From a bacterium (GTDB lineage: Bacteria > Bacillota > Clostridia > Lachnospirales > Lachnospiraceae), in NCBI GenBank assembly GCA_963593905.1, contig CAVBBL010000006.1:6139-70138 (forward strand): DNA of 64,000 nucleotides, in the 5' to 3' direction. The notes beneath the pieces were generated by a model. It had not been told where the DNA came from. It did not search any database and saw only the letters and a program-made list of their open reading frames with translations. Position 1 is the first letter of the stretch. Every line of letters begins with the position of its first letter. This document shows, piece after piece, positions 6,770 to 58,635 of the stretch. The position numbers were made by a program, and so were the translations under genes.

Positions 6770-6826
6770 AAATATAATAAAAGCCCTCCTAAGATCAGGC
6801 AGCAAAAGCTGTGATGAAAGGAGGGC
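6770..6826 (-). terminator. Rho-independent terminator after the AEC transporter gene (copy 1 of a repeated hairpin)
   Basis: The minus sense reads GCCCTCC-TTTCATCACAGCTTTTGCTGCCTGATCTTA-GGAGGGC followed by TTTTATTATATTTT. Confidence 0.55.
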
Positions 6827-6855
6827 AGCGCAGATAGGATGGATGGCATTTCCGT

Positions 6856-7855: not shown

Positions 7856-7908
7856 GTGAAAAACCCTCCCGAAAATCAAGCAGTAATAGCTGTGATGAAA
7901 GGAGGGTG
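7856..7908 (-). terminator. Terminator-like hairpin (copy 2) only 32 nt upstream of the AEC start codon
   Basis: The minus sense reads ACCCTCC-TTTCATCACAGCTATTACTGCTTGATTTTCG-GGAGGGT then TTTTCAC. The loop is about 80 percent identical to the 6783..6826 copy. Confidence 0.45.
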
Positions 7909-8033
7909 ATGCGGATATGATGAATTCCATTTCATTGGCAGGATTTGTCCTTGCCGTGTTTGTTTTCGGAGTCGAAGTCGGAAGGTTCGCCTGGAAGGTC
8001 GAGAGACTGACTCGCGAAAAAGAAGATAAATAG

Positions 8034-18332: not shown

Positions 18333-18417
18333 AGCTGCTCCCCTTTGGATAATACATTTAGTATAACATCAAAAGCTCTCTCTTGTCATCTTTTTTCGAA
18401 ACTTTGTTCGTTCATAT

Positions 18418-18537
18418 CTCTGCTTTTCTTTCTCTGCTTTTCTTTCTCTGCTTTTCTTTCTCTGCTTTTCTTTCTCCGCTTTTCTTTCCCCGCTTTTCTT
18501 TCCCCCGCTTTTCTATCTCCATTTTTCTATCTCCACT
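18418..18537. repeat. 14-bp tandem array (CTCTGCTTTTCTTT)x4 perfect then about 4 decaying units
   Basis: I read the array directly. It is purine-rich (AGAAAGAAAAGCAG) in the sense of the helicase gene and lies 85-205 nt upstream of its start. Confidence 0.85.
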
Positions 18538-18941
18538 TTATTAGAAACATTGTCTAGCCATACACCTGACTGCACGATCAGCCACGAATATTCCATAAAC
18601 ATGTGCTGAGGAAATACCGATTAAATCAGCATCTCCTTAACACTTCTAATGAATTGCACGGATTTACAAGAGGAAATCCGGCGAGGAAAGTACTTTAATC
18701 CGTGTTTTCCTAAATAAAAAACAGCTGCATACGCGTTACTGCCATCAGCTTTAACCCTGATCACAGAAGTTTACGTACACAACTGTCTTCTTTTCATTCT
18801 ATGCGCATGCCCTGCGCACTTACATTTCTTCCTGCTATTACTTTACTATTACTCTGCTATTGCTATGCATCCGTCAGCATCTCATGCACAAAATCATGCA
18901 ATATTCAATGAAATCATGCAACGACACCGTTTCGCTGACCA

Positions 18942-21658: not shown

Positions 21659-21788
21659 TTTTATGAAATGTTTTATGAAATGTTTTATGAAATATTTTGT
21701 GAAATGTTTTATGAAATGTTTTATGAAATGTTTTGTGTAATGTTTTATGTAATGTTTTATGTAATGTTTTATGTAATGTTTTATGTAG
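21659..21788. repeat. 12-bp tandem array, 11 units in two subfamilies (TTTTATGAAATG x6 then TTTTATGTAATG x5)
   Basis: I read the array directly. It lies 360-490 nt upstream of gdhA. Confidence 0.9.
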
Positions 21789-21878
21789 TACGCTACCAAT
21801 ATCAAAAGAGTTTTTGAAACTAACACTGACTGATACTTCCATGTAAGCTACCATGCAGCAAATCAATTAGCGGCCTTC

Positions 21879-22147
21879 AAAGCGTAATGCACCGGGGTGC
21901 GGCAGAATGACTCGCATCCTTTGCACTGCGCGCCAGTTTTGCATGGTTTGCATCGCAGCCGGAGGATGGTATCGGGCACGCTTTCAGAGCGTGCTCGATA
22001 GGCCCGCCTGTCTGAGCATCCCCGCATCAGGCGGGGATGCGAGTTAAGGGCCGGCCATCCGCAGGCAAGAGGCAAACCATAGCAAAACGGTGCAAAGTGC
22101 ATGGTGCGAGACATCTGCCGCACCCCGGTGCATGAACGGGCGACACC
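21879..22147 (+). repeat. GC-rich 269-nt multi-stem element, copy A (candidate structured ncRNA/cis-leader or MITE)
   Basis: It is about 90 percent identical to the reverse complement of 36372..36640. The ends form an 18-bp perfect closing stem GCACCGGGGTGCGGCAGA / TCTGCCGCACCCCGGTGC. Internal hairpins include TATCGGGCACGC/GCGTGCTCGATA and GCATCCCCGC/GCGGGGATGC. Confidence 0.8.
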
Positions 22148-22217
22148 AATCATGCAGCACTAATCATGCAGCACTAACCATGCAGCACTAACCAAGCAGC
22201 ACTAACCAAGCGGCACT
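22148..22217. repeat. 14-bp tandem array (AAYCAWGCRGCACT)x5 abutting element copy A
   Basis: The units read aatcatgcagcact, aatcatgcagcact, aaccatgcagcact, aaccaagcagcact and aaccaagcggcact. Confidence 0.85.
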
Positions 22218-23573: not shown

Positions 23574-24326
23574 TTGCGTTTACAGATTATTTTTGCAACG
23601 GGCAATCAGGATAAAGTCAGAGAGATTCGGGAGATCATGAATGATCCCCAGCTGCGTATTGCCTCCTTAAAGGATGCCGGTCTGGTCAGTGATCCCGTGG
23701 AAGACGGCTGGACCTTTGAGGCCAATGCCATCATCAAAGCCAAGGCTGTGGCGAACCTGCTGCGGATGCACGGCTCTGCTTCCTGGGCAAGAGAGCGTCA
23801 GGAAATCATGGAACAAAAAGAGCTCCTCACCCCGGCACAGCTGCAAGAGAAGCTGGATGCTACAGAGATTCCTCTTCTTCCCCTTCCGGATGGGGATCCC
23901 CAAATTCCTCTCGTCGTCATGGCAGAGGATTCCGGTCTGGTCATTGATGCCTTAAACGGCGAACCGGGAATTCAGACAGCTCGGTATCTGGGACATGACA
24001 CCTCTCATGAAGAGAAAATGAAACACATTCTGATGCGCATGGAGGGAGTGCCGGAGGAAAAACGCACTGCCAGATTCGTGGCAGCTATGGCAGCCTGTCT
24101 GCCAAACGGTGCCTCCTTTACCGTCCGCGGGGAGGTGGAGGGACACATTGCTCATGAGATCTGCGGTCAGGGCGGTTTTGGTTATGATCCCATCTTCTAC
24201 CTTCCGGAACTCGGCAAGACCACTGCCGAACTGACAGAGGATGAGAAAAACCAAATCAGTCACCGGGGACGTGCCTGCCGATTGATGCTGCAGAAGTTAG
24301 AAGAGATCTATGGCCAAAATGCCTGA
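23574..24326 (+). CDS. rdgB: RdgB/HAM1 non-canonical purine NTP pyrophosphatase with an internal insertion
   Basis: The TTG start follows GGAGGATGG. It has IIFATGNQDKVREI, EDSGLVIDALNGEPGIQTARY, FGYDPIF and SHRGRA. An insert of about 50 aa (RMHGSASWARERQEIM...) is not expected in the family. Confidence 0.8.
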   Translation: MRLQIIFATGNQDKVREIREIMNDPQLRIASLKDAGLVSDPVEDGWTFEANAIIKAKAVANLLRMHGSASWARERQEIMEQKELLTPAQLQEKLDATEIPLLPLPDGDPQIPLVVMAEDSGLVIDALNGEPGIQTARYLGHDTSHEEKMKHILMRMEGVPEEKRTARFVAAMAACLPNGASFTVRGEVEGHIAHEICGQGGFGYDPIFYLPELGKTTAELTEDEKNQISHRGRACRLMLQKLEEIYGQNA

Positions 24327-24385
24327 TGGCATTTTCAGTCATTCCAAGGATACCTTCGGTATTCTTTATCATCGCAGAGGTAAGT

Positions 24386-24880
24386 ATGAAGAAAATACTG
24401 ATTATCAGTGATACGCACAGACGGGATGATGTCATTCCCACCGTCATGCGGCAGGTCGGCCACGTGGACATGATGATCCACGCCGGGGATGCTGAGGGAA
24501 GTGAGGAAGTCTATCACCGCATTATGTGCGCAGAAAACGGAGATTTTCATTATGTGGCGGGCAATAACGACTTCTTTACCAGAGCCCCGCAGGAGGATCT
24601 GTTTTATATCGGTCCCTACCGCACTTATCTCACCCACGGTCATCAGTTCCGCGTGTCCATGGGGGATAAATATCTCCGGGATGAAGCATGGCAGAATAAT
24701 GTCAATATCCTGATTTACGGACATACTCACCGGCCTGTCGCGGAATACGAAGGTCCGATGCTGGTGCTCAACCCCGGCAGCCTGACCTATCCCCGCCAGG
24801 CCAATCAGCTTCCTTCCTATATACTGCTGACACTGGATGAGAATGACCGCCTGCAATATGAGATTCATTATCTGGACTGA
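24386..24880 (+). CDS. YfcE/MJ0936-family metallophosphoesterase
   Basis: It has MKKILIISDTHRRDD, IHAGD, GNND, THGH and YGHTH. The start at 24386 follows AGAGGTAAGT. Confidence 0.8.
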   Translation: MKKILIISDTHRRDDVIPTVMRQVGHVDMMIHAGDAEGSEEVYHRIMCAENGDFHYVAGNNDFFTRAPQEDLFYIGPYRTYLTHGHQFRVSMGDKYLRDEAWQNNVNILIYGHTHRPVAEYEGPMLVLNPGSLTYPRQANQLPSYILLTLDENDRLQYEIHYLD

Positions 24881-24932: not shown

Positions 24933-25012
24933 TGCGGATAACAGGACTTGAACCTGCACCCTGTCGGACCAGAACCTAAATCTGGCGCGTCTGCCAATTC
25001 CGCCATATCCGC
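24933..25012 (-). tRNA. tRNA-Leu (anticodon UAG), long variable arm
   Basis: The acceptor is GCGGATA/TATCCGC. The anticodon arm is CCAGA-TTTAGGT-TCTGG. The T arm is GGTTCAAGTCC. No CCA is encoded. Confidence 0.85.
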
Positions 25013-25062
25013 ATAAATGAGATAAATATCATGATACAATTTTATATAAATTTATATAAAGA

Positions 25063-25088
25063 TAAAAAATACCACCCATAAGGGTGGT
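25063..25088 (-). terminator. Terminator after the six-tRNA block
   Basis: The minus sense reads ACCACCC-ttat-GGGTGGT then ATTTTTTATC. Confidence 0.6.
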
Positions 25089-25097
25089 TGACTTCAG

Positions 25098-33175: not shown

Positions 33176-34885
33176 TAGCCGCAGTGTGATATAACTGGTG
33201 TCTTCTTCTCTCGTCCTCCAAAGTTCGCCGCCAAAGGCCTTGATTCTCTCATTCCATTCCGAAGACAGATAAATCTCGTCCGTTGTATCCAGGGTCAGCT
33301 GCACCTGCAGCAGGGGGACGTCTGACTCTGGTTCTTTTTTTACCTCCAGTAAGGACATCCACACCCGCAGATACGGCAGGGAGTTCTCTATGACCGTCTC
33401 CATAAATTCCCCTGCACAAAGAATCAACTCGCCGTCAAAGACATCGCTCCCTATGCACTCCACATAGGTTTTGATACCGCACATGCGCAAGTACTCTAAG
33501 ACCTCCGACGTAGCAAGATAGAGTTCCTCCACTTGCACTTTTCCCTGTTGGGCGAGTAAAAGCAGATTAGAATGACGCTTGATATATGCCGCCAGAAGAC
33601 TGGCCCGCTGCATATTTCTGTCTACTTCCTGTTCTGCCTCTGCATCCTTCCCCTCTTTTTCGTCTGTCTTATTTATAATCTTTTCCGTCTGGTTCAGCAG
33701 TTCCTGCATCATCTCCAGCTGCTTGCCCACCGTACTGGCCATTTTGTCATAGAGCCTTGTCTTTTCCTCAATTCGGGCTTTTCGCTGTGCCAGTTTATTT
33801 TCCCCTTCCAGCATAGCATTTTCTTCTGTCAGAATGTCTCTATATTCTTCCAGCTCTCTGTTCAGACTGTTACGCTTGCTCACGTCCTCTGTCCAATAAC
33901 CGATGCCGCCCTGCAGCGTCTGACTATAGAGAAGCAGATCGCCGTTATGCAAGGAAATCGGCTCCCTTAACGCTGCTTCTGCCTGTTTTATATTGATGGC
34001 CACTGTATTTCCTGAGTGATAGCGTATCCTGCCCTTTCGATCTAGAATACCGCCCGAAGCAGCCGATAGGTTCCAGAGATTTTCATAATCATCATTAGAA
34101 TGGATCAGTCCGGCCTGAATCAATCCTTCTGTGAAGGCGATACAAAGTATGGAAAAAAACTCTGCCATATTGAATGTAAAATAATACCGAATCACCGGTA
34201 TACTGTAGACGCTTACCATGTAAATCAGACCGATAGCCAGGGGCAGCAGCGGCATCCAGATATGTTTTCTGCTGGAGGTAACCCTGCAGCGTTTCATGGC
34301 GATTACTAAGGAACTGCAGACCAGTACAATCACCCACAGCATGGTCAAATAATAAAAAATGCAATGCGTATAATTATCGCCGACATGCCACTGGCTTGCT
34401 CCTTTGGGAAAACCAAAGGCCTGTTGATGCAGATCATTGGTCATCATTCCGATGGAAAGCACGAAAGCCGGTATGTAAAGCCTTTTCCATTTCTTTTCGA
34501 TCCTATAATCCCAGGGTTTTCCTATGCACAATACAGCAAAAAAGACACATAGTACAGAATAAATGATGGGCGTGTAGTAAAAATACCACACATAGCGGAC
34601 GGCTGTTTCATTGTCCGAAAAAAAAGAGTGATTGACCAGCTTAACTAACAGCATCACACTCATAAACATGACCATCCAGGTAAAGTAACGCCTTTTTTCC
34701 TCCTGAAGCAGTCGACGTCGCATCTGTACACACCAGATATACAATGCCGCCAGCATCATCATCCCCTGGATATTATTGGCAGGAAATCCCTTCCAGCTGA
34801 TGCTTAAATGGGAAAATACGGCGGATAGGATCACCAGAAGAAGGCATATTATATTGACTCTCGTGGTCTCTTTACTGCTGTGCAT
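33149..34885 (-). CDS. 7TM histidine-kinase-like membrane protein, apparently degenerate (Tyr at the H-box position, no clear G1/G2)
   Basis: It has about 7 N-terminal TM helices. A coiled linker follows, then RIEEKTRLYDKMASTVGKQL, which aligns by eye with RxxIAxxLHDxxGQxL of HisKA_3. The C-terminal domain lacks DxG and GxG boxes. The last 7 codons (QPQQAAA) are encoded by hp1 of the repeat. Confidence 0.7.
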   Translation of the reverse strand: MHSSKETTRVNIICLLLVILSAVFSHLSISWKGFPANNIQGMMMLAALYIWCVQMRRRLLQEEKRRYFTWMVMFMSVMLLVKLVNHSFFSDNETAVRYVWYFYYTPIIYSVLCVFFAVLCIGKPWDYRIEKKWKRLYIPAFVLSIGMMTNDLHQQAFGFPKGASQWHVGDNYTHCIFYYLTMLWVIVLVCSSLVIAMKRCRVTSSRKHIWMPLLPLAIGLIYMVSVYSIPVIRYYFTFNMAEFFSILCIAFTEGLIQAGLIHSNDDYENLWNLSAASGGILDRKGRIRYHSGNTVAINIKQAEAALREPISLHNGDLLLYSQTLQGGIGYWTEDVSKRNSLNRELEEYRDILTEENAMLEGENKLAQRKARIEEKTRLYDKMASTVGKQLEMMQELLNQTEKIINKTDEKEGKDAEAEQEVDRNMQRASLLAAYIKRHSNLLLLAQQGKVQVEELYLATSEVLEYLRMCGIKTYVECIGSDVFDGELILCAGEFMETVIENSLPYLRVWMSLLEVKKEPESDVPLLQVQLTLDTTDEIYLSSEWNERIKAFGGELWRTREEDTSYITLRLKQPQQAAA

Positions 34886-36371: not shown

Positions 36372-36640
36372 GGTGCCGCCCGGCCATGCACCGGGGCGCG
36401 GCAGATGTCTCGCACCATGCACTTTGCACCGTTTTGCTAAGGTTCGCCTCTCGCCTTCGGATGGCCGGCCCTTAACTCGCATCCCCGCTTGATGCGGGTC
36501 TGCTCAGACAGGCGGGCCTATCGAGCGCGCTCTGAAAGCGCGCCCGATACCATCCTCCGGCTTCGATGCCAACCTAAGCAAAACTGGCGCGCAGTGCAAA
36601 GGATGCGAGCCATTCTGCCACGCCCCGGTGCATTACGTTT
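36372..36640 (-). repeat. GC-rich 269-nt multi-stem element, copy B (inverted relative to copy A)
   Basis: Its reverse complement aligns end to end with 21879..22147, with about 25 differences. Three of these are compensatory pairs within predicted stems. Confidence 0.8.
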
Positions 36641-36726
36641 TGCCAATTCATAATAAACAACCCAGAAATAAGATTCTTTGTATAACAATTCCGGAATATG
36701 TATAAATTGATAATTCCGCACCGTGC

Positions 36727-36818: not shown

Positions 36819-37856
36819 TTACCAAATTCGCATGACGTGCTGCATCAGGAGGCTGACGACGGTAATGCCGCACCAGCAGCAGGCACCCACCAGGATGGGC
36901 TTTCCTCCGGTCTTCACTAATTTGATCACGTTACTGTTCAGGCCAATCGCTGCCATGGCCATGATGATCAGGAACTTGGACAGCTCCTTTAAGGGATTAA
37001 AAGTACTTGCCTCTATACCCATATTAACGCAAATGGTGGTGATAACGGCTGCAATTATAAAGTAAAGAATAAACATGGGAAAAGCTCTTTTTAAGCTGAA
37101 CTTTGTCGCCTGTTTTCCCTCTTTTTGGCTCTTGCCGGCGCGAATCAGTGAAAGTATCAGTGTTATAGGAATAATGGCCAGTGTTCTGGTAAGCTTGACG
37201 GTCACAGCTTTATTCAGGGTCTCACTGCCAAGGTTCCACATGCTGTCCCAGGTGGACGCCGCTGCCGTCACTGAAGAGGTGTCGTTGATGGCGGTACCTG
37301 CAAAGATGCCGAAGGCATCCCCGTGCAGCGTATCAAAGCCGATAGCTTTTCCCAGAATCGGGAAAAAGATGGCTGCGAGCACATTGAAGAAAAAGATCAC
37401 GGCGATAGACTGGGCCACTTCATTATCATCTGCGTCGATGACAGGTGCTGTAGCCGCAATGGCAGATCCGCCGCAGATAGAGGAGCCGACGCCTACCAGA
37501 ATGGCTGTATTGGAGGGCACCTTCCATAGCTTTTGCAGTGCCCAGGCGATGACCAGAGATGTGGTGATGGTGCAGACGATGATGGGAAGGGACTGTCTGC
37601 CTGTCTCAAAAATCACGCCCAGATTCATGCCAAAGCCAAGGAGTACCACTGCGGTCTGCAAAATGATCTTTGAAGTCCATTTGATGCCTGCCTCTGCCTT
37701 TCCCTTATCCTGCCAGAACATAGCGATGACCATCCCTGCCAGGATCGCTGTCACAGCGCCGCCGATCACGGGAAAGAGCTTTCCGATGCCCCACGCCGGT
37801 ATGGCGATCAGCAGGCATACCAGAATACCTGTAGCGTTTTTCTTTAAAAAATACAT
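36819..37856 (-). CDS. YeiH/UPF0324-family putative sulfate/anion exporter membrane protein
   Basis: MYFLKKNATGILVCLLIAIPAWGIGKLFPVIGGAV is present, with about 10 TM helices. A divergent LysR gene sits nearby, as in the yeiE-yeiH arrangement. The start at 37856 follows AAAGGAAGT. Confidence 0.7.
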   Translation of the reverse strand: MYFLKKNATGILVCLLIAIPAWGIGKLFPVIGGAVTAILAGMVIAMFWQDKGKAEAGIKWTSKIILQTAVVLLGFGMNLGVIFETGRQSLPIIVCTITTSLVIAWALQKLWKVPSNTAILVGVGSSICGGSAIAATAPVIDADDNEVAQSIAVIFFFNVLAAIFFPILGKAIGFDTLHGDAFGIFAGTAINDTSSVTAAASTWDSMWNLGSETLNKAVTVKLTRTLAIIPITLILSLIRAGKSQKEGKQATKFSLKRAFPMFILYFIIAAVITTICVNMGIEASTFNPLKELSKFLIIMAMAAIGLNSNVIKLVKTGGKPILVGACCWCGITVVSLLMQHVMRIW

Positions 37857-38164
37857 TTGTACTTCCTTTCTGCGCCGGCGCCCATGTTCCTGTCCTTGAC
37901 CGGCCTGTCGATCGGATAACGGATGATTTCTGACAAAACGGAGTTCTCCGCAAGGATGACCGGTGTGCCATATCACATGGGCAGCGGCAATACTTTCTTC
38001 TTTTCAACCGGCATTGTATCACTGTACAATAATAAGGTAAAATTATATATTTCTATAGAATGATAAATTTATTTTATTATACTTTAACTGCTGTCTTTCA
38101 CCTGTTTTTGATCTGATTTGTCAATGACTCTTCACAGCTATATTGCTCAGAAAGGATGATTCCT

Positions 38165-39052
38165 ATGCTAGATTTCAGAACAGAGACCTTTCTCACTGTA
38201 TGTCAGACTCTGAATTACACGGCAGCAGCCAGGCAGCTGCACATTACGCAGCCTGCCGTCTCCCAGCATATTCACTTTCTGGAAAAAGAATACGGTGTCC
38301 CTCTTTTTCTGTATAAAAACAAACAGCTTTTCCTTACTGACGCCGGAGAAATACTCCGCAAGCATCTGCTGACCATCCAGAATGATGAGAAAGCAGTAAA
38401 GGAAGAACTGCGCTCTGTTCGTGCCGGCATAGAGACGCTTTCCATAGGGGTCACCATGACCATCGGTGAGTATGCCATTGTCGATCGGCTCTCCGATTAT
38501 CTGCACCTCCATCCGGAAATCAATCTGCATCTTCACTACGGCAATACCTCTCAGCTGCTGCAGCTGTTGGATCAGGGACAGATCCGCATGGCTATCGTAG
38601 AGGGAAACTATCCAAAAGGAAACTATGCCCACCAAAAATACAGCACAGAGGACTATATCGCCGTCTGTGCTGTATCACATCATTTTATAAAATCTGATCC
38701 GCTGCATATCACTGATCTTACAGAAGAGCGCCTGCTGGTGCGGGAACATGGATCCGGCACCAGAGACATTCTGGAGCAAAGCCTGACAACCAGAGGAATT
38801 CATATCTCTGATTTCCGGCATTACATTGAGGTAGAAAACATGCATACCATCATCGGTCTCCTGAAAAGGGACTGCGGCATTTCTTTTCTGTACAGGATCG
38901 CGGTGGAGGAAGAGCTGCAAAAAGGAACTATACGGGAAATTTCTCTGGAGGATTTCCGGATGCAGCATGACTTTGACATGATCTGGGAAAAAGGCAGCAT
39001 CTATACCGATAAATTTCTTTCCATCTCAGAAGCCATTACAAAGAACAAATAA
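38165..39052 (+). CDS. LysR-family transcriptional regulator
   Basis: The HTH is FLTVCQTLNYTAAARQLHITQPAVSQHIHFLE, followed by a LysR substrate-binding domain. The ATG at 38165 has AAAGGA 8 nt upstream. The ORF track start is 38156. Confidence 0.85.
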   Translation: MLDFRTETFLTVCQTLNYTAAARQLHITQPAVSQHIHFLEKEYGVPLFLYKNKQLFLTDAGEILRKHLLTIQNDEKAVKEELRSVRAGIETLSIGVTMTIGEYAIVDRLSDYLHLHPEINLHLHYGNTSQLLQLLDQGQIRMAIVEGNYPKGNYAHQKYSTEDYIAVCAVSHHFIKSDPLHITDLTEERLLVREHGSGTRDILEQSLTTRGIHISDFRHYIEVENMHTIIGLLKRDCGISFLYRIAVEEELQKGTIREISLEDFRMQHDFDMIWEKGSIYTDKFLSISEAITKNK

Positions 39053-39104: not shown

Positions 39105-41105
39105 TTACTGTTCTTCCAGATAACTCTCAGTGGGCATCTGGGGTGCATCTTCCAGATTTGTCACATCCAGATATCCCTTGATGGGGAAATTATCAAAGGC
39201 CAGACCGCCCAAATACTCATAGCTGTCCAATCCGTCTATGCTGCACATGGTGTCCAGAAATTCTGACCAGTCTACCCATTTGTCCACTTTACCTACGTAG
39301 AGATAGCTCTCCCCGGGATTGACCACGGACACTGCATATTCGTTGCGGAAATAGTCCCCTTCTATCAGTTCCTCTTCTGTCAGATCCGGATTTTCCTCTC
39401 TGACCTTGTCATTATAATCCTCTGTCCGATCTTTGTCGAAGCCGTAATTGATGAACATTCTGTAATATTCCTGATTCTCATAGGTCTGCTTCTGCGTCAC
39501 CACCACGGCGTATTTCTGTCCTTTTTTCAGTTCCAGTCCGCCGTCATCGATCTCGAGGCGGTGATAACCGGCATGTTCAAAGGTAAGTTCACCGCTGGCT
39601 GCACTCTCTCCGTCGCAGGGAGTCTTAAAATCATCCTCCAGCAGGTAGCATTCCAGTTCCACCTCGATATTCTCTGCGTCTGTCTTGCACATAACGGAGC
39701 GGAGCACGCCGTCTGCCTCAGCGGTAAAGACGTTGGCCGTGGAAATCTTATTTTTTCCGGTCCAGCTCATCTCCTGACCGCTGGCCAGGAAATCGTATTG
39801 GTCAATAATGGTATCCACTGTATCTGCCATATCTGTGTCAAAGAGATATGCCTGCATATCGCTGAGGCTTCGGTCATAGTAAGAGATATAGAAATAACCT
39901 GTACTGTATCCCCCTTCGTCCACAATGCCCCAGGGACTGGCATTCGGGAAGGAGGAATAATCTGATCCCCAGCTGTTCTTGACGATCCAGGCGCCGTCTC
40001 CTTCGGGCAGATGAGCCTCGCCATCTCCGTCAGGATCATCAGTATGATCCAGAAAATCCTCTCTGGAAATGGTATCGTCCCATCCCACGATAGTCACCTC
40101 ATGATTGGAAGGACTTCCATCATAGGTAAAGTGGGTCCAATGGTTATCCGCTGTGTTGATATAGGAAGGTATTTCCTCCTCTGCATTTTCCGCATAAGGG
40201 GAATAACTATCCGCACAGATCGCCACAGTGATGGCACGACCGCTGAGAAGCACATCCTTCATCGTATCTGTGGCTCCCTGGTCGTATCCCTTGTAATTGG
40301 CCTCCCGCTCTTCCTTGTCTGCGCTGGTCTCGCCGATATTCCCTGTATAGACTGCCGGAGAGAGCAGTACGTCCGCACTCATCAGCTCATAGTTGTGAAC
40401 GAAACGGTACTCCTCAGGAACAGACCAATCATCCTCTGTGCTGTAATTTAAGGGATCACCGTCCTCGTCATCGACAGTATTGCCTTCCTTACCTCTGTAG
40501 GGAATCATGGACTCCGGCGCAATGCCTACACCGGAGGCTAACAGTGTGGTCGCCTCTGCCGTGGTGCCCCCGGCGTCCATGGGAGAGACATCGAAAAGAG
40601 TATGCATACCCTCTCCGTCCTGGCTGGAGCCGTCACTGAGACCGGTACCGGAGAAATAACCGATCTGGTGCTCGGAGAGATCCAGCCCGGTCTCCTCATA
40701 GGTCTGATCCAGACTGGAAAGGATGCTGGTCTCCGCAGCTGCTACGGTACCGAATACCCAGCAGCTGCCCCAGGGAGTTTGGTCCTTGACCGGTGTCACA
40801 TAGCCATAGTCCCGCAGATCAAACTGCTCAGGAAAATCGCCTGTGGATTCATCAGAGGGCTCCCGTTCCACTACCACATTCTCATCTTCATCATAGAGAG
40901 CAAGGACAATATCCTGCATGCTGGGCTCGCTCTCGGGCATGAGCATAAGAGCGGTAAAGGAAACCACTACTACGCCAACGACAATGAGCAGACCATTGCG
41001 GAGCTTGTGGGACTTCTTTTTCTTCATCGTGTTGCCGGAGAGCTGTGCCTCTGTATAAAGCACTTCTCCGGTATTCTGGCTGTTATTCTTTTTCTTTCTT
41101 CTCAT
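39105..41105 (-). CDS. Membrane-anchored papain-like (C1 family) cysteine peptidase with large C-terminal extension
   Basis: The start is MRRKKKNNSQ at 41105. It has the TM LLIVVGVVVVSFTALMLM. The catalytic Cys is in KDQTPWGSCWVFG, the His in NHEVTIVGWDD and the Asn-Trp in WIVKNSWG. The ORF track start at 41225 is an extension through the repeat. Confidence 0.85.
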   Translation of the reverse strand: MRRKKKNNSQNTGEVLYTEAQLSGNTMKKKKSHKLRNGLLIVVGVVVVSFTALMLMPESEPSMQDIVLALYDEDENVVVEREPSDESTGDFPEQFDLRDYGYVTPVKDQTPWGSCWVFGTVAAAETSILSSLDQTYEETGLDLSEHQIGYFSGTGLSDGSSQDGEGMHTLFDVSPMDAGGTTAEATTLLASGVGIAPESMIPYRGKEGNTVDDEDGDPLNYSTEDDWSVPEEYRFVHNYELMSADVLLSPAVYTGNIGETSADKEEREANYKGYDQGATDTMKDVLLSGRAITVAICADSYSPYAENAEEEIPSYINTADNHWTHFTYDGSPSNHEVTIVGWDDTISREDFLDHTDDPDGDGEAHLPEGDGAWIVKNSWGSDYSSFPNASPWGIVDEGGYSTGYFYISYYDRSLSDMQAYLFDTDMADTVDTIIDQYDFLASGQEMSWTGKNKISTANVFTAEADGVLRSVMCKTDAENIEVELECYLLEDDFKTPCDGESAASGELTFEHAGYHRLEIDDGGLELKKGQKYAVVVTQKQTYENQEYYRMFINYGFDKDRTEDYNDKVREENPDLTEEELIEGDYFRNEYAVSVVNPGESYLYVGKVDKWVDWSEFLDTMCSIDGLDSYEYLGGLAFDNFPIKGYLDVTNLEDAPQMPTESYLEEQ

Positions 41106-41413
41106 TTTTACCTCTTTGAGCCGCAGCTCGTCTGCGGCTATGTGAGGAGAATTTCGCGAAGGCGAATTCTCCGATACAATTAGCAAGGATGCCGAAGGTA
41201 TCCTTGCAATGACGAAAAATGGCATCAGACATTTTTCGTCATTTTCCCTCTTTAAGCCGCAGCTCGTCTGCGGCTATGTGAGGAGAATTTCGCGAAGGCG
41301 AATTCTCCGATACAATTAGCAAGGATGCCGAAGGTATCCTTGCAATGACAGAAAATGACATCAGTCATTTTCTGTCATTTTCCCTCTTTCAGCAGCAGCT
41401 TGTCTGCGGCTGC
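41106..41413. repeat. 136-nt four-hairpin modular repeat, 2.2 tandem units directly upstream of the peptidase start
   Basis: CCTCTTT recurs at 41111, 41247 and 41383, giving a period of 136. The hp1-hp4 order is the same as at 33004..33175. The last unit ends CTCAAAGAGGTAAAAATG (SD and start). Confidence 0.9.
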
Positions 41414-41502
41414 ATAATACGATCTGACGTTTTCAGCATCATGTTTCGCAGTTTACCTGATGCCTTATACTCAAAGCGTAACAACCGCTTTCCCCTTGCT
41501 AT

Positions 41503-41560
41503 GAAAAAAGCCGAGCGAAAGAGGACTGACAAAAATGCCCGCCTCCCTCTTCCTCGGCTT
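41503..41560 (-). terminator. Terminator after the alanine:cation symporter gene
   Basis: The minus sense reads AAGCCGAGGAAGAGG...CCTCTTTCGCTCGGCTT then TTTTCATAG. Confidence 0.6.
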
Positions 41561-41582
41561 ACTGCTGCATGATAAAACTTTC

Positions 41583-42986
41583 TTATTTAGATTTGCTGCC
41601 CTCTCCGGCAAAATACTCCTTCGCCAGCTTGCATACCACACCGCTTAAGAGGAACACACCGATCAGGTTCGGAATGGCCATCAATCCATTAAAGGTATCG
41701 GCAATATCCCAGAGCAGTCCCAGGTCAATAGTAGCCCCCAGGATAGACACAAGGGAATAAACCACCAGGAAGGGGCGCACCACCTTATCCGTAGAGAAAA
41801 GGAAGCTGATGCATCGGGAGCCGTAGAGGCCCCAGCTGATAATGGTGGAAAAAGCAAAGCAGCAAAGAGCCAGCGCTGTAAAGATGGTGATCCAGTTGCC
41901 ATAGACAAGGGTAAAACCGGAAATCGTCAGTTCCGCCCCGGCTGCCTGTCCGTATCCCACGGTCGTGCCGCTGCACAGGATAACCAATGCAGTCAATGTA
42001 CAAATGACAATGGTATCTGCAAAAACTTCGAAGATACCGAACATGCCCTGCTTCACCGGCTTGCTGGTATCCGCACAGGCATGAGCGATGGAACCGGTGC
42101 CCAGTCCGGCCTCATTGGAGAAGATTCCTCTGGAAACACCCTTTTTCATACTCAGAAAAATACTGCCTACCATACCGCCGGTAAATCCTCTGGGATTAAA
42201 GGCGCCGCCGATGATGGAAGCGAAAACCTCCGGAATCCGTCCGGCATTCAGAATCACAACTCCCAGTGCCATAACTACATAGAGAAGCGCCATGAAAGGC
42301 ACCAGACGCTCCGCCACGCTTCCGATCCGCTTGATTCCCCCCAGGAGCACCATGGCCACCAGGATGGCGATGATCACACCAAGAATCAGATTCAAGTTGG
42401 AAAGCGCCTTTCCGGAAATCGGATGAAAACTGTTTACCGCAGAGATAATGGCGGTAGTAATGGTATTGACCTGGGTGGCATTGCCGGTTCCAAAGACCGT
42501 CAGCACTCCAAAGAGAGAATAGGCGAAAGCCAGCCACGCCCATTTTTTGCCAAGGCCATTACGGATATAGTACATGGGTCCGCCTACTAATTCACCGTTT
42601 TGGTTGCGTTCATGGAAATGCACGGCCAGGGTCACTTCCGCAAACTTCGTGCACATGCCGAGGATAGCGGAGCACCACATCCAGAAGACCGCACCGGGGC
42701 CTCCCAGCGCGATAGCTCCTGCCACGCCGGCAATATTGCCGGTACCCACGGTGCCTGCCAGTGCAGTACAGACCGCCTGAAAAGGCGTTATGGCGCCGTC
42801 TGAGGCATCCTTTTTCTTAAACATGCGCCCCAATGTCGTGCGGATCGCATAGGGAAACTTTCTGATCTGCAAAAAGCCGGTACGGATACTTAGGTACAGT
42901 CCCACGCCCAATATGCAGATCATAGCCGGCACGCCCCAGATAAACTGGTTCACTGCCTGATTGACAGCCGTAATCGTCTCTAACAT
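41583..42986 (-). CDS. Alanine/glycine:cation symporter (AGCS) family transporter
   Basis: It has MLETITAVNQAVNQFIWGVPAMICILGVGLYLSIRTGFLQIRKF and FQAVCTALAGTVGTGNIAGVAGAI. The start at 42986 follows GGGGAGGAGT. Confidence 0.85.
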   Translation of the reverse strand: MLETITAVNQAVNQFIWGVPAMICILGVGLYLSIRTGFLQIRKFPYAIRTTLGRMFKKKDASDGAITPFQAVCTALAGTVGTGNIAGVAGAIALGGPGAVFWMWCSAILGMCTKFAEVTLAVHFHERNQNGELVGGPMYYIRNGLGKKWAWLAFAYSLFGVLTVFGTGNATQVNTITTAIISAVNSFHPISGKALSNLNLILGVIIAILVAMVLLGGIKRIGSVAERLVPFMALLYVVMALGVVILNAGRIPEVFASIIGGAFNPRGFTGGMVGSIFLSMKKGVSRGIFSNEAGLGTGSIAHACADTSKPVKQGMFGIFEVFADTIVICTLTALVILCSGTTVGYGQAAGAELTISGFTLVYGNWITIFTALALCCFAFSTIISWGLYGSRCISFLFSTDKVVRPFLVVYSLVSILGATIDLGLLWDIADTFNGLMAIPNLIGVFLLSGVVCKLAKEYFAGEGSKSK

Positions 42987-52414: not shown

Positions 52415-52682
52415 TCCCTCCTCCTCTCTTCCTGCCTTCTGTTTTTGCAACTTCAGCAGGTGTATCTTTATATTACATCCGTCATCCTGACGAATAAATG
52501 GAGATTTAAGACCTGCTATCTGTAAAAAAATGACATTCCATGTCGCAAACGTCACTTTTTTATGTTCAATTTGCCCATTCCGTATCCAAGCAGCCATTTG
52601 CCCTTGTCTATGATTTGATGTAAGATGAACAATATAGTTTTGACGTGAACATGAAAAAGCGTAATGATTGTACAGAACTTTA

Positions 52683-52834
52683 TTAATGAACCTTACTGAT
52701 AAACTTTATTGATGAAGCTTACTGATGAACTTAACCGATGAACCTAACTGATGAACTTGACTGATGAACCTAACTGATGAACTTGACTGATGAACCTAAC
52801 TGATGAACTGCATTGATGAACCCTACTGCTATGA
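52683..52834. repeat. 13-bp tandem array, 11-12 units (core TGATGAAC; alternating ACTGATGAACCTA / ACTGATGAACTTG) running into the kinase start codon
   Basis: GATGAAC or a near variant occurs at 52685, 52698, 52711, 52724, 52737, 52750, 52763, 52776, 52789, 52802 and 52815. The period is exactly 13. Confidence 0.9.
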
Positions 52835-56523: not shown

Positions 56524-57738
56524 CTATAATCGTTCAGGGCTTTTACTCCACAGTGCATTGTAGGCATCCACAATCTGTTTCCAGGCATAGTGCTCTCTGA
56601 TTCTCTTCTTTGCCTTTTCCCCCATTGCAACCTTCTCCGGCTCTGTCAGAGCGTCTGCCCTGTCTATCAGGGCTGCAAGATTTCCCTCCTCTTTTGTCCA
56701 GTACAGCGCTGCGTCCTGTGCCACCTCCTCGTTAAAGGATACCTGCAGCAGCAGATTTACCCTGGTCGCCCCCAGGCTCTCCAAAAGACTGGGATTCGTA
56801 CCTCCCACCTCGTGCCCGTGCAAATAGCCGCTGGCATTCTCTCTTAATGCTGTCAGCAATGTCTGATCATAGACTGCCCCCGGAAAACAGATCCGCGAAT
56901 CCCCTGAAAAATGCAATCTTTCATCCAGACTATGGCGATATCTTTCGTTTTCGGTCATGACCAGCAGCAGCTTTCGTTTTGTTTTGCTTTTCATGAATTC
57001 CCGCAGCATGATTTCGATATTATTCTCTGCAACAAAACGGCATACTACCAGATAATAACCATCCCGTTCCAGTCCATGCTTTCTGTAAAAGCAATCTAAT
57101 GCTTTGCTTTGTTCTGCCGTGCCGTTGCCTGATATCTTTGCTCCATAAGGAATAAAGGTGGTGCGAGGCTGATAAGAAGCATAGGTCTGTCGGATATACG
57201 TTTCTATTTGTCTGCTGTCACAGATGACCAGATCTGACTCCCGGATCATCTGACGCTCCGACATTTTCCAGTATTTTTGCACCGGACGAGGCCATTTTCT
57301 CCTCTTCCATTCGTGACCGTCCGGATTAATATGCAGTTCCCCTCCCAGTTCTCTGATCCGATGGGAGAGCAACCGAATCATCGGTCCGATGCGGCAGGTG
57401 AGAATATAGATAACCGGTTCTTTGATCTCCTTCTCACGGCAATATTGCAGGCAATAATGCACGGCGGCTGTATCGTACCATATAGCCGTTGCCGATCCCA
57501 GCTTCGGCACCGGAAGCTTGACGCAGTGTACGCCGTGATACATAAATTCCATGGAACTGACAGGCTGTACATTTTCCAGCGTGCTCTCGTCCATACAGCC
57601 GCTCCCATTGGCCTTGCACATAATATGAAGCTGTATATCTGTAAGATAATTGCTGTGGCGGGCCAGTTCCTGCACAAAGGTTTCATATCCGCCGTAGTGT
57701 CCGATGGATTTGGCACCGCATATAAATACATGTCTCAT
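56524..57738 (-). CDS. DUF1972-type GT4 glycosyltransferase (WchF/RgpA-like rhamnosyltransferase family)
   Basis: The N-terminus MRHVFICGAKSIGHYGGYETFVQEL is characteristic of DUF1972. The C-terminus has GHEVGGTNPSLLESLG. Confidence 0.7.
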   Translation of the reverse strand: MRHVFICGAKSIGHYGGYETFVQELARHSNYLTDIQLHIMCKANGSGCMDESTLENVQPVSSMEFMYHGVHCVKLPVPKLGSATAIWYDTAAVHYCLQYCREKEIKEPVIYILTCRIGPMIRLLSHRIRELGGELHINPDGHEWKRRKWPRPVQKYWKMSERQMIRESDLVICDSRQIETYIRQTYASYQPRTTFIPYGAKISGNGTAEQSKALDCFYRKHGLERDGYYLVVCRFVAENNIEIMLREFMKSKTKRKLLLVMTENERYRHSLDERLHFSGDSRICFPGAVYDQTLLTALRENASGYLHGHEVGGTNPSLLESLGATRVNLLLQVSFNEEVAQDAALYWTKEEGNLAALIDRADALTEPEKVAMGEKAKKRIREHYAWKQIVDAYNALWSKSPERL

Positions 57739-58635
57739 CTATACCCCTTTACACCGCAGCTTTGCTGCAGAAATCTTAAAAATCCCTGGAAAATACCACC
57801 TCGCCAGAAGAAGATATTTCCTGCTCTGCCCAGGATCTGTTTTTCTTATTTGCCGATAACCGCTTAGCAGATCCTTTACGATATGAAGCGAGAGTGCAGG
57901 ACTTTGGACAGGTAGTGCAGGATAATACTCTTTTAGCAGAGTAAAGGCGGCATAGATCCGCTCCGTTCCCCGGCTAATGGAGTCTGCGCCGATATAGTAA
58001 TCCACCAGCGCCTCCTTCATGCAATAAATCCTGTATTTTTGCACTGCATGAATAAACCACTCCAGATCCTGATAGCGCGGCATCTCAGGACGAAAGGATA
58101 TATGATCCAAGACAGAACGTCTTGTTAAAATAGTCTGGGTTCCTATCCCGAAAAGATCGTCTTTCGCAGTAAGGAATCCCCCTCCTGCCCGTTTGGGGCA
58201 TTGAATCACGCCTCCCTCCATACCGAAACGATTCATTTTGCAAACCACTATATCGGCATGTGTTTCTTTCATTACCTGCATCTGTCTGATCAGTTTATCC
58301 GGATGCCAGCAATCATCACTGTCATGGAAGGCGATGTATTCTCCCTTTGCCAGAGCTGCACCGTGATTTCTCGCAGCACAGGCCCCTGCATTTGTCTGAT
58401 AGACATAATGAAGCCGAGGATCATCGATACTCTCTATCACTGCTCTGGTCTCATCTGTCGAGCCGTCATCTATAAGGAGCAGTTCCAACCTGTCGTAGCT
58501 TTGAGAAAGCACGCTCTCCACTGCCTTTTTCACCACTGCTGCCCGATTGTACGACGGTATGATTACCGACACCAGGGGCTGTTGTACATTTGGGGTCATT
58601 TTACATTTACAGTCATTTTCCCTCATTTTTTCCAC
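57739..58635 (-). CDS. GT2-family glycosyltransferase
   Basis: It has VSVIIPSYNRAAVVKKAVESVLSQSY, LLLIDDGSTDET and the DxD motif FHDSDD. Confidence 0.85.
   Translation of the reverse strand: MEKMRENDCKCKMTPNVQQPLVSVIIPSYNRAAVVKKAVESVLSQSYDRLELLLIDDGSTDETRAVIESIDDPRLHYVYQTNAGACAARNHGAALAKGEYIAFHDSDDCWHPDKLIRQMQVMKETHADIVVCKMNRFGMEGGVIQCPKRAGGGFLTAKDDLFGIGTQTILTRRSVLDHISFRPEMPRYQDLEWFIHAVQKYRIYCMKEALVDYYIGADSISRGTERIYAAFTLLKEYYPALPVQSPALSLHIVKDLLSGYRQIRKTDPGQSRKYLLLARWYFPGIFKISAAKLRCKGV

Follow-up and report, generated by a model that had tools for sequence, protein, structure and literature searches.

A modular, hairpin-rich intergenic repeat family with a putative built-in ribosome-binding site in Lachnospiraceae-type Clostridia

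We have analysed a 64,000-nucleotide stretch of a Lachnospiraceae contig (CAVBBL010000006.1, positions 6,139 to 70,138; 'the window' in what follows), in which a 136-nt unit of four hairpins is tandemly repeated directly upstream of a cysteine (C1) peptidase gene. The locus belongs to an interspersed repeat family, modular, rich in hairpins and present in many copies, of the Lachnospiraceae-type Clostridia of gut and rumen, and the family is apparently undescribed. Its units run, in the sense of the downstream gene, hp2 - hp3 - hp4 - hp1 (hp standing for hairpin) and then a purine-rich Shine-Dalgarno sequence (SD), often with another copy of hp1+SD ahead; the role of the 3' module (hp1 + SD) as donor of a ribosome-binding site (RBS) is well supported by its position in the sequences compared. 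On balance, and with some reserve, we favour the reading that these modular intergenic repeats form a new family, are transcribed and persist because of the RBS that they carry.

Extent and genomic position of the family

The initial annotation of the window assigned the unit to no described family, and proposed a check of Rfam and a profile search of related genomes. The latter takes the family well beyond the window, with some 190 copies in other genomes. A pattern for hp4, its loop left free, was scanned over one genome per species and matched at least 88 stretches; a profile built from an alignment of 48 full units, applied to 88 loci and the window, gave 191 non-overlapping matches (185 in the loci, six in the window). 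These fall into 148 arrays: 115 single, 26 double and five triple, with one of four units and one of five. The two copy-richest metagenome-assembled genomes (MAGs) have at least 86 matches in 34 8-kb blocks and at least 56 in 25 blocks, respectively. The hp4 matches come mainly from the MAGs CAVKQI and CAVBJS and from several Lachnospiraceae-labelled MAGs of rumen and deer abomasum, and a cultured isolate, Lachnoclostridium sp. Marseille-P6806 (Lachnospiraceae), also carries the family.

A few source MAGs are labelled Clostridium CAG:508, Bacteroidaceae, Succinivibrio or Anaerovibrio. We note that the flanks of loci from 'Clostridium sp. CAG:508' and 'Anaerovibrio sp.' MAGs are 87-88% identical in nucleotide sequence, and that one MAG labelled just 'bacterium' is 96% identical to a Lachnospiraceae MAG (the loci compared being L002 with L065 and L079 with L058); the 'cleanbin' MAG names, 'Bacteroidaceae' and 'Succinivibrio' included, are probably unreliable. 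Contigs often end within the element (for example L007, L022, L074, L077, L085:7751-7818 and L092:6082-6221), indicating that the repeat breaks short-read metagenome assemblies.

The absence of a described family has held up. Rfam, searched over the whole window at gathering score, returned seven tRNAs only, and over 40900-41700 at E values up to 10 just spurious miRNA-type hairpin matches far below threshold; literature searches by topic, and in full text with the hp4 sequence, yielded unrelated primers and no description of the repeat. Neither the viral contigs of IMG/VR, the phage genomes of INPHARED nor the plasmids of PLSDB contain a match to the family, and a phage or plasmid origin was rejected on that account.

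It is the position of the 3' end that carries the case for RBS donation. Among 146 matches that include this end, 35 precede another unit and three run off their locus, leaving 108 that are testable. The proposal that the repeat donates the RBS of the downstream gene, originally made for two loci, holds family-wide: 95 of the 108 ends (~88%) supply an SD and an ATG that opens an open reading frame (ORF) of at least 30 codons, and GTG or TTG starts lie behind a few more. Taking ORFs of at least 80 codons, 88 of the 108 array ends abut a start, as against 15% for random positions and 19% for antisense 5' ends; the start is ATG in 85 of these 88, and the 40 nt upstream of it are stereotyped. The element ends 4-12 nt before the start codon, always in gene orientation, and all 148 arrays are head-to-tail on one strand. 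On the other side, a co-directional ORF precedes 115 of 136 arrays at a median distance of 10 nt from ORF end to element, the upstream gene's stop often falling within the left hp1/SD-like part; a minority of arrays, such as that in L008, follow promoters and lie in 5' leaders.

The genes so preceded are functionally unrelated. Eighty-five downstream proteins match 133 different Pfam families and take in transporters, enzymes of glycolysis and of nucleotides, enzymes that modify rRNA, and regulators (among them acetate kinase, phosphoglycerate mutase and ABC transporters), so that a regulon, a riboswitch or a gene-specific leader was rejected. Nor does orientation follow the replication strand, a cause rejected from GC skew: this is negative throughout the window, yet the copy at 24.3 kb (plus strand) and those at 31-41 kb (minus strand) each lie in gene sense. 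Across the family, the C-rich strand holds nine of 79 gene-abutting copies, still in gene sense, in a test that is confounded by coding-strand composition. Orientation thus tracks transcription.

Hairpin architecture, covariation and turnover

The four hairpins are conserved in quite different ways. The apex of hp2 is conserved (AAATGCC-TGAT-GGCATTT or AAATGAC-TGAT-GTCATTT) and its lower stem varies freely; hp3 is always a near-perfect hairpin of almost arbitrary sequence. In this hp4-selected set, hp4 is nearly invariant: one A is bulged, the internal loop is ATC/TC, and the outer 3-bp clamp covaries (CGT/ACG, CAC/GTG, CGC/GCG, CCT/AGG). The usual form of hp1 is TGCCGC..GCGGCA, followed by (N)AGAAAGG, GGAGG or AGAGG, 4-12 nt and ATG. 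Distant members retain hp4 and the overall architecture and differ in the sequences of hp2, hp3 and hp1, while many copies are truncated at the 5' side with the 3' end intact. A search for solo hp1+SD sites found a handful only, and hp1 is therefore essentially part of the element.

Paired changes between stems, of which the initial annotation gave an example from the window, prove to be numerous. RNAalifold predicts 42 pairs, 31 of them with compensatory change, and all four hairpins show such change strongly. Evaluated on the named structure, standard pairs fill 95.5% of cells, compared with 80.2% after shuffling and 35-49% in slid controls, and double-sided changes occupy 291 cells, compared with 80 and 22-51; none of 500 shuffles reaches the observed value of either measure.

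Sequence divergence suggests that the dispersed copies are old. Non-adjacent copies share on average ~71% identity within a genome and ~68% between genomes, and tandem neighbours 94%; the richest genome contains no dispersed pair above 95%. Orthologous sites were compared between the window and L085, an orthologous region ~78% identical to it, and among peptidase orthologs obtained by protein homology search (L089-L092). The element occurs at orthologous sites in the window and L085, with hp4 kept, although not at all of them: the 33-kb junction is empty in L085, where divergence sets in directly after a shared coding CTGCGGCT equal to the 3' arm of hp1. At the response-regulator junction L085 has an intact hp3-hp4-hp1-SD, and the window copy has lost ~34 nt from the 3' arm of hp4 to hp1. 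Directly upstream of its peptidase ortholog L085 again has the element, inside which the contig ends.

The peptidase gene itself provides a series of states. The 2.2 units of the window compare with 1.2 units in L089 (peptidase 98% identical to that of the window), an unrecognisable decayed remnant in L090 (90%), two units of another subtype in L091 (84%), which abut the symporter stop with neither terminator nor spacer, and no element in L092 (84%), which has a different native SD region. Conversely, the junction between the aminotransferase gene and the next gene is empty in the window and L091 and filled in L092, by a unit flanked by duplicated GCAGCAAAGCTGCTCAGAAATGAGG. In 12 of 44 arrays the left hp1+SD is near-identical to the right one of the same locus, a likeness attained in 1.8% of comparisons between loci, and in about nine further arrays it is partially so, by inspection. 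The element differs by ~9-10% (by eye) between the window and L089, where the adjacent spacer differs by ~2.4%, and the differing patches resemble the 33-kb copy; orthologous copies can even bear wholly different hp3 stems. Taken together, the hp1+SD repeats, the patchy differences and the filled and empty sites point to expansion and contraction, patchy gene conversion and repeated gain and loss at gene starts. A further candidate pair of filled and empty sites, L049 and L046, was dropped as rearranged and unclean.

The copies in the window and their surroundings

Tandem Repeats Finder bears out the 136-nt register and the 2.2 copies first noted at 41106-41413 upstream of the peptidase (41106-41411, period 136, 2.2 copies, 93% matches, no indels), the locus of 1.3 units noted at ~33 kb is likewise real, at 33003-33175, and a repeat search groups 33003-33138, 41106-41241 and 41242-41377 as one family. 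The proposed order of four hairpin modules is seen directly in the minus-strand sequence of 40900-41600 and 32900-33300, which reads hp1 / AAAGAGGG / hp2 / hp3 / hp4 / hp1 / SD / ATG. Here hp1 is GCCGCAG-n4/5-CTGCGGC followed by purine-rich AAAGAGGG, hp2 is a 16-bp stem with the loop TGAT, and hp4 is GGAGAATTCGC-CTTC-GCGAAATTCTCC and carries the bulged A; the final hp1 is followed by (T/C)T(A/C)AAAGAGGTAAnnATG, which leads directly into the start codon, AAAGAGGTAAnnATG being present at both 41105 and 33003. Folding the array region (331 nt) as minus-sense RNA recovers the four hairpins at a predicted -140.5 kcal/mol (z = -10.9 against shuffles), and the complementary strand reaches -158.5 kcal/mol (z = -14.6).

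The array upstream of the C1 peptidase/lectin gene (41106-41413, minus strand) consists of a partial unit (hp1 and SD-like sequence) and then two full 136-nt units, with covariance-model matches at 41100-41259 (149 bits) and 41260-41395 (100 bits). The partial unit, spanning 41382-41410, has an imperfect hp1, GCCGCAG-ACAA-GCTGCTGC, at 41392-41410 (nhmmer match 41378-41417) beside SD-like GAAAGAGGG at 41382-41390. In the distal unit (41242-41377), hp2 lies at 41344-41379 (again a 16-bp stem with the loop TGAT), hp3 at 41319-41343, hp4 with its 3-bp clamp at 41277-41314 and hp1 at 41256-41274, followed by internal SD-like AAAGAGGG. The proximal unit (41106-41241) has hp2 at 41208-41243 (the ACGA..TCGT variant, with one mismatch), hp3 at 41183-41207, hp4 and clamp at 41141-41178, hp1 at 41120-41138 and the SD AAGAGG at 41111-41116, ahead of the peptidase ATG at 41103-41105. 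The two units differ almost solely in hp2, by the paired change from ACAG..CTGT to ACGA..TCGT that had been correctly described at the outset, and the hp2 of the distal unit matches that of the 33-kb copy.

The copy at 33003-33175 (minus strand) comprises 1.3 units. Its left hp1 (33153-33170) coincides with the end of the upstream ORF (33149-34885), so that, as previously read, 33149-33172 codes for QPQQAAA and the stop (TAA, 33149-33151); hp2 (33105-33140), hp3 (33083-33101), hp4 with clamp (33038-33075), hp1 (33018-33035) and the SD (33009-33015) follow, and the ATG of a 466-aa gene is at 33001-33003. The degenerate fragment noted near 31.5 kb was recovered by nhmmer at 31547-31605. This decayed copy (31544-31605, minus strand) keeps hp3 at 31581-31600, an hp4 truncated after GCGAAA (31547-31570) and the SD AAGGGA, upstream of the ATG (31535-31537) of a LuxR-type response regulator. 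A partial copy that had been overlooked, at 24312-24385 on the plus strand (gene sense), was found with a profile of the three units: it has an hp2 remnant (24316-24335), hp3 (24346-24366) and the SD AGAGG (24376-24380) before an ATG at 24386, and neither hp4 nor hp1. This copy sits between a Ham1-family gene, whose stop codon is the TGA of the hp2 TGAT loop, and a metallophosphoesterase gene, which it precedes. An unfiltered covariance-model run confirms the window copies and adds just one doubtful site, a possible solo hp1-like hairpin (CTGCAGC-AAA-GCTGCGG, then AAAGGGG and an ATG at 57738) at 57742-57775 on the minus strand, of low confidence (E ~0.009).

Reading along the minus strand, the gene order is MatE transporter, Na/Ala symporter, a terminator-like hairpin, a ~90-nt spacer, the 41-kb array, the C1 peptidase with its lectin-like domain, an aminotransferase, and a 578-aa membrane protein with a weak 7TM-HisK match; past the 33-kb copy come the 466-aa protein, the decayed 31.5-kb copy and the LuxR-type regulator from ATG 31537. 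The 466-aa protein had been called a kinase, which is plausible and not demonstrated, HATPase_c scoring below threshold (E = 0.025). Downstream of the symporter gene, at 41504-41560 (minus strand), a long imperfect hairpin read from the sequence (AAGCCGAG...CTCGGCTT and a T-run) resembles a terminator; it is kept in L089 and L090 and was missed by the simple terminator scan, which has a loop limit of 8. Because this hairpin and T-run come first, a 5' leader is likelier for the 41-kb array in this genome than a spacer inside an operon, so that the placement 'inside operons' first suggested fits most of the family, as judged from the co-directional upstream ORFs, but probably not this copy. The scans called no sigma-70-like promoter on the gene strand inside the two window arrays, and no intrinsic terminator in the window arrays on either strand. 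A terminator identity for the repeat was rejected, there being no terminator-like site in the arrays and hp1 being followed by A/G-rich sequence, not a U-tract.

The repeat also bears on how genes are called. Public gene calls start the peptidase ORF (39105-41225, minus strand) 40 codons upstream, inside the repeat, giving 706 aa instead of 666 aa, and the ATG at 41105 behind the element's SD is the likely true start. Likewise, the mechanical ORF of the LuxR-type regulator (30905-31621, minus strand) begins at a TTG within the upstream gene and the repeat remnant, and the ATG at 31537, which gives 210 aa with the receiver domain beginning at residue 6, agrees with the start of the L085 ortholog.

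Several other features of the window were recorded. A cluster of seven tRNA genes (24933-25683, minus strand) adjoins the strand switch between plus-strand and minus-strand repeat copies. Gene content near the peptidase differs between close relatives: a LysR-family gene (38156-39052, plus strand) is present beside it in the window and L090, with none called at that place in L089, L091 and L092, and L091 and L092 have no call for a PF03601 gene (36819-37976) that is called in the window and L089.

A second, unrelated repeat of ~270 nt lies at 21868-22146 (plus strand) and 36379-36646 (minus strand), and elsewhere at L017:5160-5440, L048:3764-4031, L037:1-200, L020:5323-5488 and L080:2-171. It is 85-90% conserved between genomes, above the level of coding genes, and, with ends that pair (AATGCACCGGGGCGCGGCAGA ... 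TCTGCCGCGCCCCGGTGCAT), looks like a structured non-coding RNA; Rfam contains no match to it, and an overlapping 96-aa ORF has no Pfam match. Tandem Repeats Finder reports short-period repeats at 21659-21785 (12 nt, 10.6 copies of TTTTATGAAATG), 22151-22217 (14 nt, 4.8 copies), 18417-18539 (14 nt, 8.9 copies), 52675-52828 (13/26 nt, 11.8 copies) and 95-249 (39 nt, 4 copies). Finally, a 74-nt direct repeat (AAAAGCCCTCCTAAGATCAGGCAGCAAAAGCTGTGATGAAAGGAGGGC...), each copy with an internal inverted repeat, occurs at 6779-6852 and 7860-7933 (77% identical) and may represent a further family of small intergenic repeats or of terminators.

Competing explanations and known repeat systems

Synthesising these findings, we propose that the family owes its persistence to its 3' module, which sits where an RBS must be; the element-less L092 has a different SD at this place. 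Carrying its own SD, a copy inserted or duplicated directly upstream of a start codon would keep the gene expressible and would be nearly neutral, and copies would persist at gene starts and nowhere else, in gene sense, because the element brings that SD with it. The hairpin stack, by folding the upstream spacer on itself, probably insulates the SD and AUG from upstream mRNA, and may also buffer mRNA decay or processing between cistrons. The initial annotation had put forward mRNA processing or stability control, or translational gating of the downstream gene, which stand as candidate roles. We further suggest that arrays grow and shrink through recombination between the flanking hp1+SD direct repeats, and that gene conversion swaps modules between copies.

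A number of observations weigh against this proposal, and chief among them is the nature of the covariation. Stem changes are almost purely from one Watson-Crick pair to another, one-sided changes of the G·U type being very rare, and the excess of G·U pairs on the mRNA strand that is expected of RNA-level selection is absent; indeed the trend is reversed. When the whole element is folded, 72 G·U pairs form in sense and 149 in antisense; counted by module on unique sequences, hp4 has 9 and 43, a difference due to one conserved A·C / G·U internal-loop position, and hp1-hp3 have 30 and 54. In 62 of 72 copies the antisense strand also folds more stably, the mean difference being 3.9 kcal/mol, a gap that may be due in part to loop energies such as that of the CGAAGG tetraloop. 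With covariation that is almost wholly Watson-Crick and G·U pairs not enriched on the mRNA strand, selection of the hairpins as RNA cannot be demonstrated; the palindromes are equally compatible with strong selection for stable RNA stems, DNA-level folding or templated correction from arm to arm, and we infer a 'structured mRNA element' from position, not from covariation. The near-invariance of hp4 owes something to ascertainment through the hp4 search pattern, yet it is also seen in loci reached by protein homology. The predicted opening energy from -12 to +5 is lower than that of control genes at the same loci (3.1 compared with 5.4 kcal/mol, p = 6e-7), but the sign is reversed from -16 to +3, a span that overlaps hp1; since the result depends on the chosen span, SD accessibility lends weak support to such insulation of the initiation region. 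Single copies are evidently dispensable, being present, decayed or absent at orthologous sites, and this turnover argues against an indispensable regulatory role. Lastly, neither a mobilising enzyme nor a clean target-site duplication was identified, no genome-wide transposase search having been made.

The same Watson-Crick-only covariation, lack of a sense-strand G·U preference and near-perfect palindromes would suit a purely DNA-level, selfish and non-autonomous element (REP/RAYT-, IS200/IS605-PATE- or MITE-like, a MITE being a miniature transposable element with inverted repeats), whose hairpins are recognised in trans as single-stranded DNA or cruciforms, the SD and gene-sense position being what selection spares and the hairpins having no mRNA role. 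This explanation, in our judgement improbable if still the foremost of the alternatives, also draws on the filled and empty orthologous sites, on the locus-specific ~15-33-nt hp1+SD flanking repeats that resemble target duplications, on the multi-copy, assembly-breaking character of the family, and on the hp1 at each end, which is its own inverted repeat. It sits uneasily, however, with the lack of terminal inverted repeats besides hp1 and of a short target duplication of fixed length, and with dispersed copies that share ~71% identity and in the richest genome form no pair above 95%, and so give no sign of recent bursts. IS200/IS605-type elements show a replication-strand bias, unlike this family, whose orientation tracks transcription; the SD-ATG distance is fixed at ~88% of ends, a regularity that random insertions, once filtered, would hardly produce; and the phage and plasmid collections searched lack the family. 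Slightly more doubtful, to our minds, is a portable RBS cassette with machinery of its own, either a mobile element that targets start sites, which may home on the hp1/SD region and duplicate ~15-33 nt (a mode not described for bacterial repeats), or a genome-wide layer in which one factor may bind the invariant hp4 before a hundred or more unrelated genes. We give somewhat less credence again to genome-wide post-transcriptional control, whereby hp4 (with its bulged A, AUC/UC internal loop and covarying 3-bp clamp) and the hp2 apex (AAAUGCC-UGAU-GGCAUUU) would bind a dedicated RNA-binding protein or RNase that co-regulates the translation or decay of all downstream genes. Recognition sites typically combine a helix of invariant sequence with a clamp that covaries, hp4 is conserved where flanking genes are only ~78-84% identical and neighbouring stems vary freely, its position relative to the SD is fixed, and within it an SD-like GGAG faces an arm that resembles an anti-SD (CUCC) and pairs with it, as read from sequence. 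Against such control stand the lack of a common function among the 133 Pfam families downstream, the gain, loss or decay of copies at orthologous genes, the many 5'-truncated copies (with hp4 missing at 24.3 kb and truncated at 31.5 kb), the want of a sense-strand G·U signature of RNA-level selection, and the failure to identify a candidate protein.

The functional strand might instead be the one antisense to the genes, the element stopping or structuring antisense transcripts, on which hp2 is followed by UUUUCCCUCUUU. The better antisense fold (-158.5 as against -140.5 kcal/mol here, and in 62 of 72 copies) and the greater number of G·U pairs on that strand speak for this, but most of the G·U excess comes from the one conserved hp4 internal-loop position, the energy gap may partly reflect antisense loop energies, the terminator scan is empty on both strands and the fixed SD-ATG junction is left unexplained; we consider it very unlikely. 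As for chance similarity, or a local assembly or duplication artefact, nothing beyond the small copy number in the window speaks for it, and ~190 homologous copies in independent assemblies, a cultured isolate included, with fold z scores of -11 and -15, have already refuted it; its probability is negligible.

Should our favoured reading of a repeat that persists through its own RBS be right, and the element be functional, a sizeable fraction of the genes of Clostridia that abound in gut and rumen would start translation within a standardised region borne by the repeat, nature's counterpart to the insulated RBS parts of synthetic biology. It would likewise be a lever on operon architecture, as in L091, where the element joins the symporter and peptidase genes directly. 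Such repeats mislead gene callers as well as breaking metagenome assemblies, and their variable copy number could serve strain typing, as MIRU does. The family is also a clean system in which to ask whether palindromes are preserved by RNA selection, DNA selection or templated mutation.

The initial annotation likened the unit to REP/BIME or BOX mosaic elements, and this general kind is supported, in that the family is dispersed and modular (mosaic); the closest concepts are two that it did not name, the REP2 repeats of Neisseria and MIRU. Neisseria REP2 are ~120-150-bp intergenic repeats immediately upstream of genes, with internal stem-loops, a carried RBS and no terminal inverted repeats (PMC3184786), and the IR-A/IR-B repeats of Borrelia likewise carry an RBS (PMC3184786). 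REP2 and the present family share this concept, translation signals being supplied by a repeat, and here 95 of 108 ends have an SD and an ATG. REP2, however, supplies a promoter and ATG, has two stem-loops and numbers ~23-26 copies before a contact-regulated gene set, whereas our family shows no promoter in the two arrays scanned, is mostly intercistronic, precedes unrelated genes, and has four hairpins, tandem arrays and far more copies in several genera. A REP2-like promoter serving a coordinated gene set was accordingly rejected: no sigma-70-like promoter was found on the gene strand within either window array, 115 of 136 arrays follow a co-directional ORF, and the downstream genes are unrelated.

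MIRU inserts at start codons and preserves downstream expression via a small ORF coupled to the flanking genes (PMC12548453; PMC3184786). Our family resembles it in being intercistronic and gene-oriented, with variable tandem number (2.2 and 1.2 units in near-identical strains) and filled and empty sites, but would preserve expression via the carried SD, and its unit is dominated by long perfect hairpins; a coupling ORF of the MIRU type was rejected, since stops interrupt every one of the three frames of each unit and its length of 136 nt is not divisible by 3.

The BOX elements of Streptococcus pneumoniae are modular (boxA-boxB(n)-boxC). They resemble the family in modularity, variable module number, strong predicted RNA structure, transcription, intergenic location and MITE-like character, but they belong to another host with no known sequence relation and are thought to be mobilised by an insertion sequence (ISStso1); to our knowledge, BOX is neither locked to start codons nor a supplier of SDs. 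REP/BIME are high-copy extragenic palindromes with compensatory changes and mosaic clusters, and have roles in mRNA 3'-end protection. High-copy palindromes, compensatory stem changes and mosaic clusters are common to both, but a REP is one hairpin of ~35 nt, frequently paired with another in inverted orientation, and its common places are 3' ends and the gaps between convergent genes; membership was rejected for a 136-nt unit of four distinct hairpins, arranged head-to-tail only on the 5' side of genes. Nor is this a MITE of the Correia, RUP or ERIC type: the left end of the unit (SD-like/hp2) and its right end (hp1/SD) do not form inverted repeats, and the flanking direct repeats, ~15-33 nt, of variable length and locus-specific, are not the target-site duplication of such an element. 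An integron attC or gene-cassette array was rejected because the copies are scattered across many contigs, where they precede housekeeping genes; no integrase was sought.

STAB-SD and the 5' stem-loop stabilisers of Firmicutes are, respectively, SD-like sequences at which translation does not initiate and 5' hairpins by which the mRNA downstream is stabilised. Each unit of our family likewise has an internal SD-like AAAGAGGG and stable hairpins, although the stabilisers are features of single genes, not a repeat family. Within the structured interspersed intergenic repeats, then, what sets this family apart is the four-hairpin unit, the hp4 core shared across genera, the donation of an SD by ~90% of arrays, and the long, locus-specific hp1+SD flanks.

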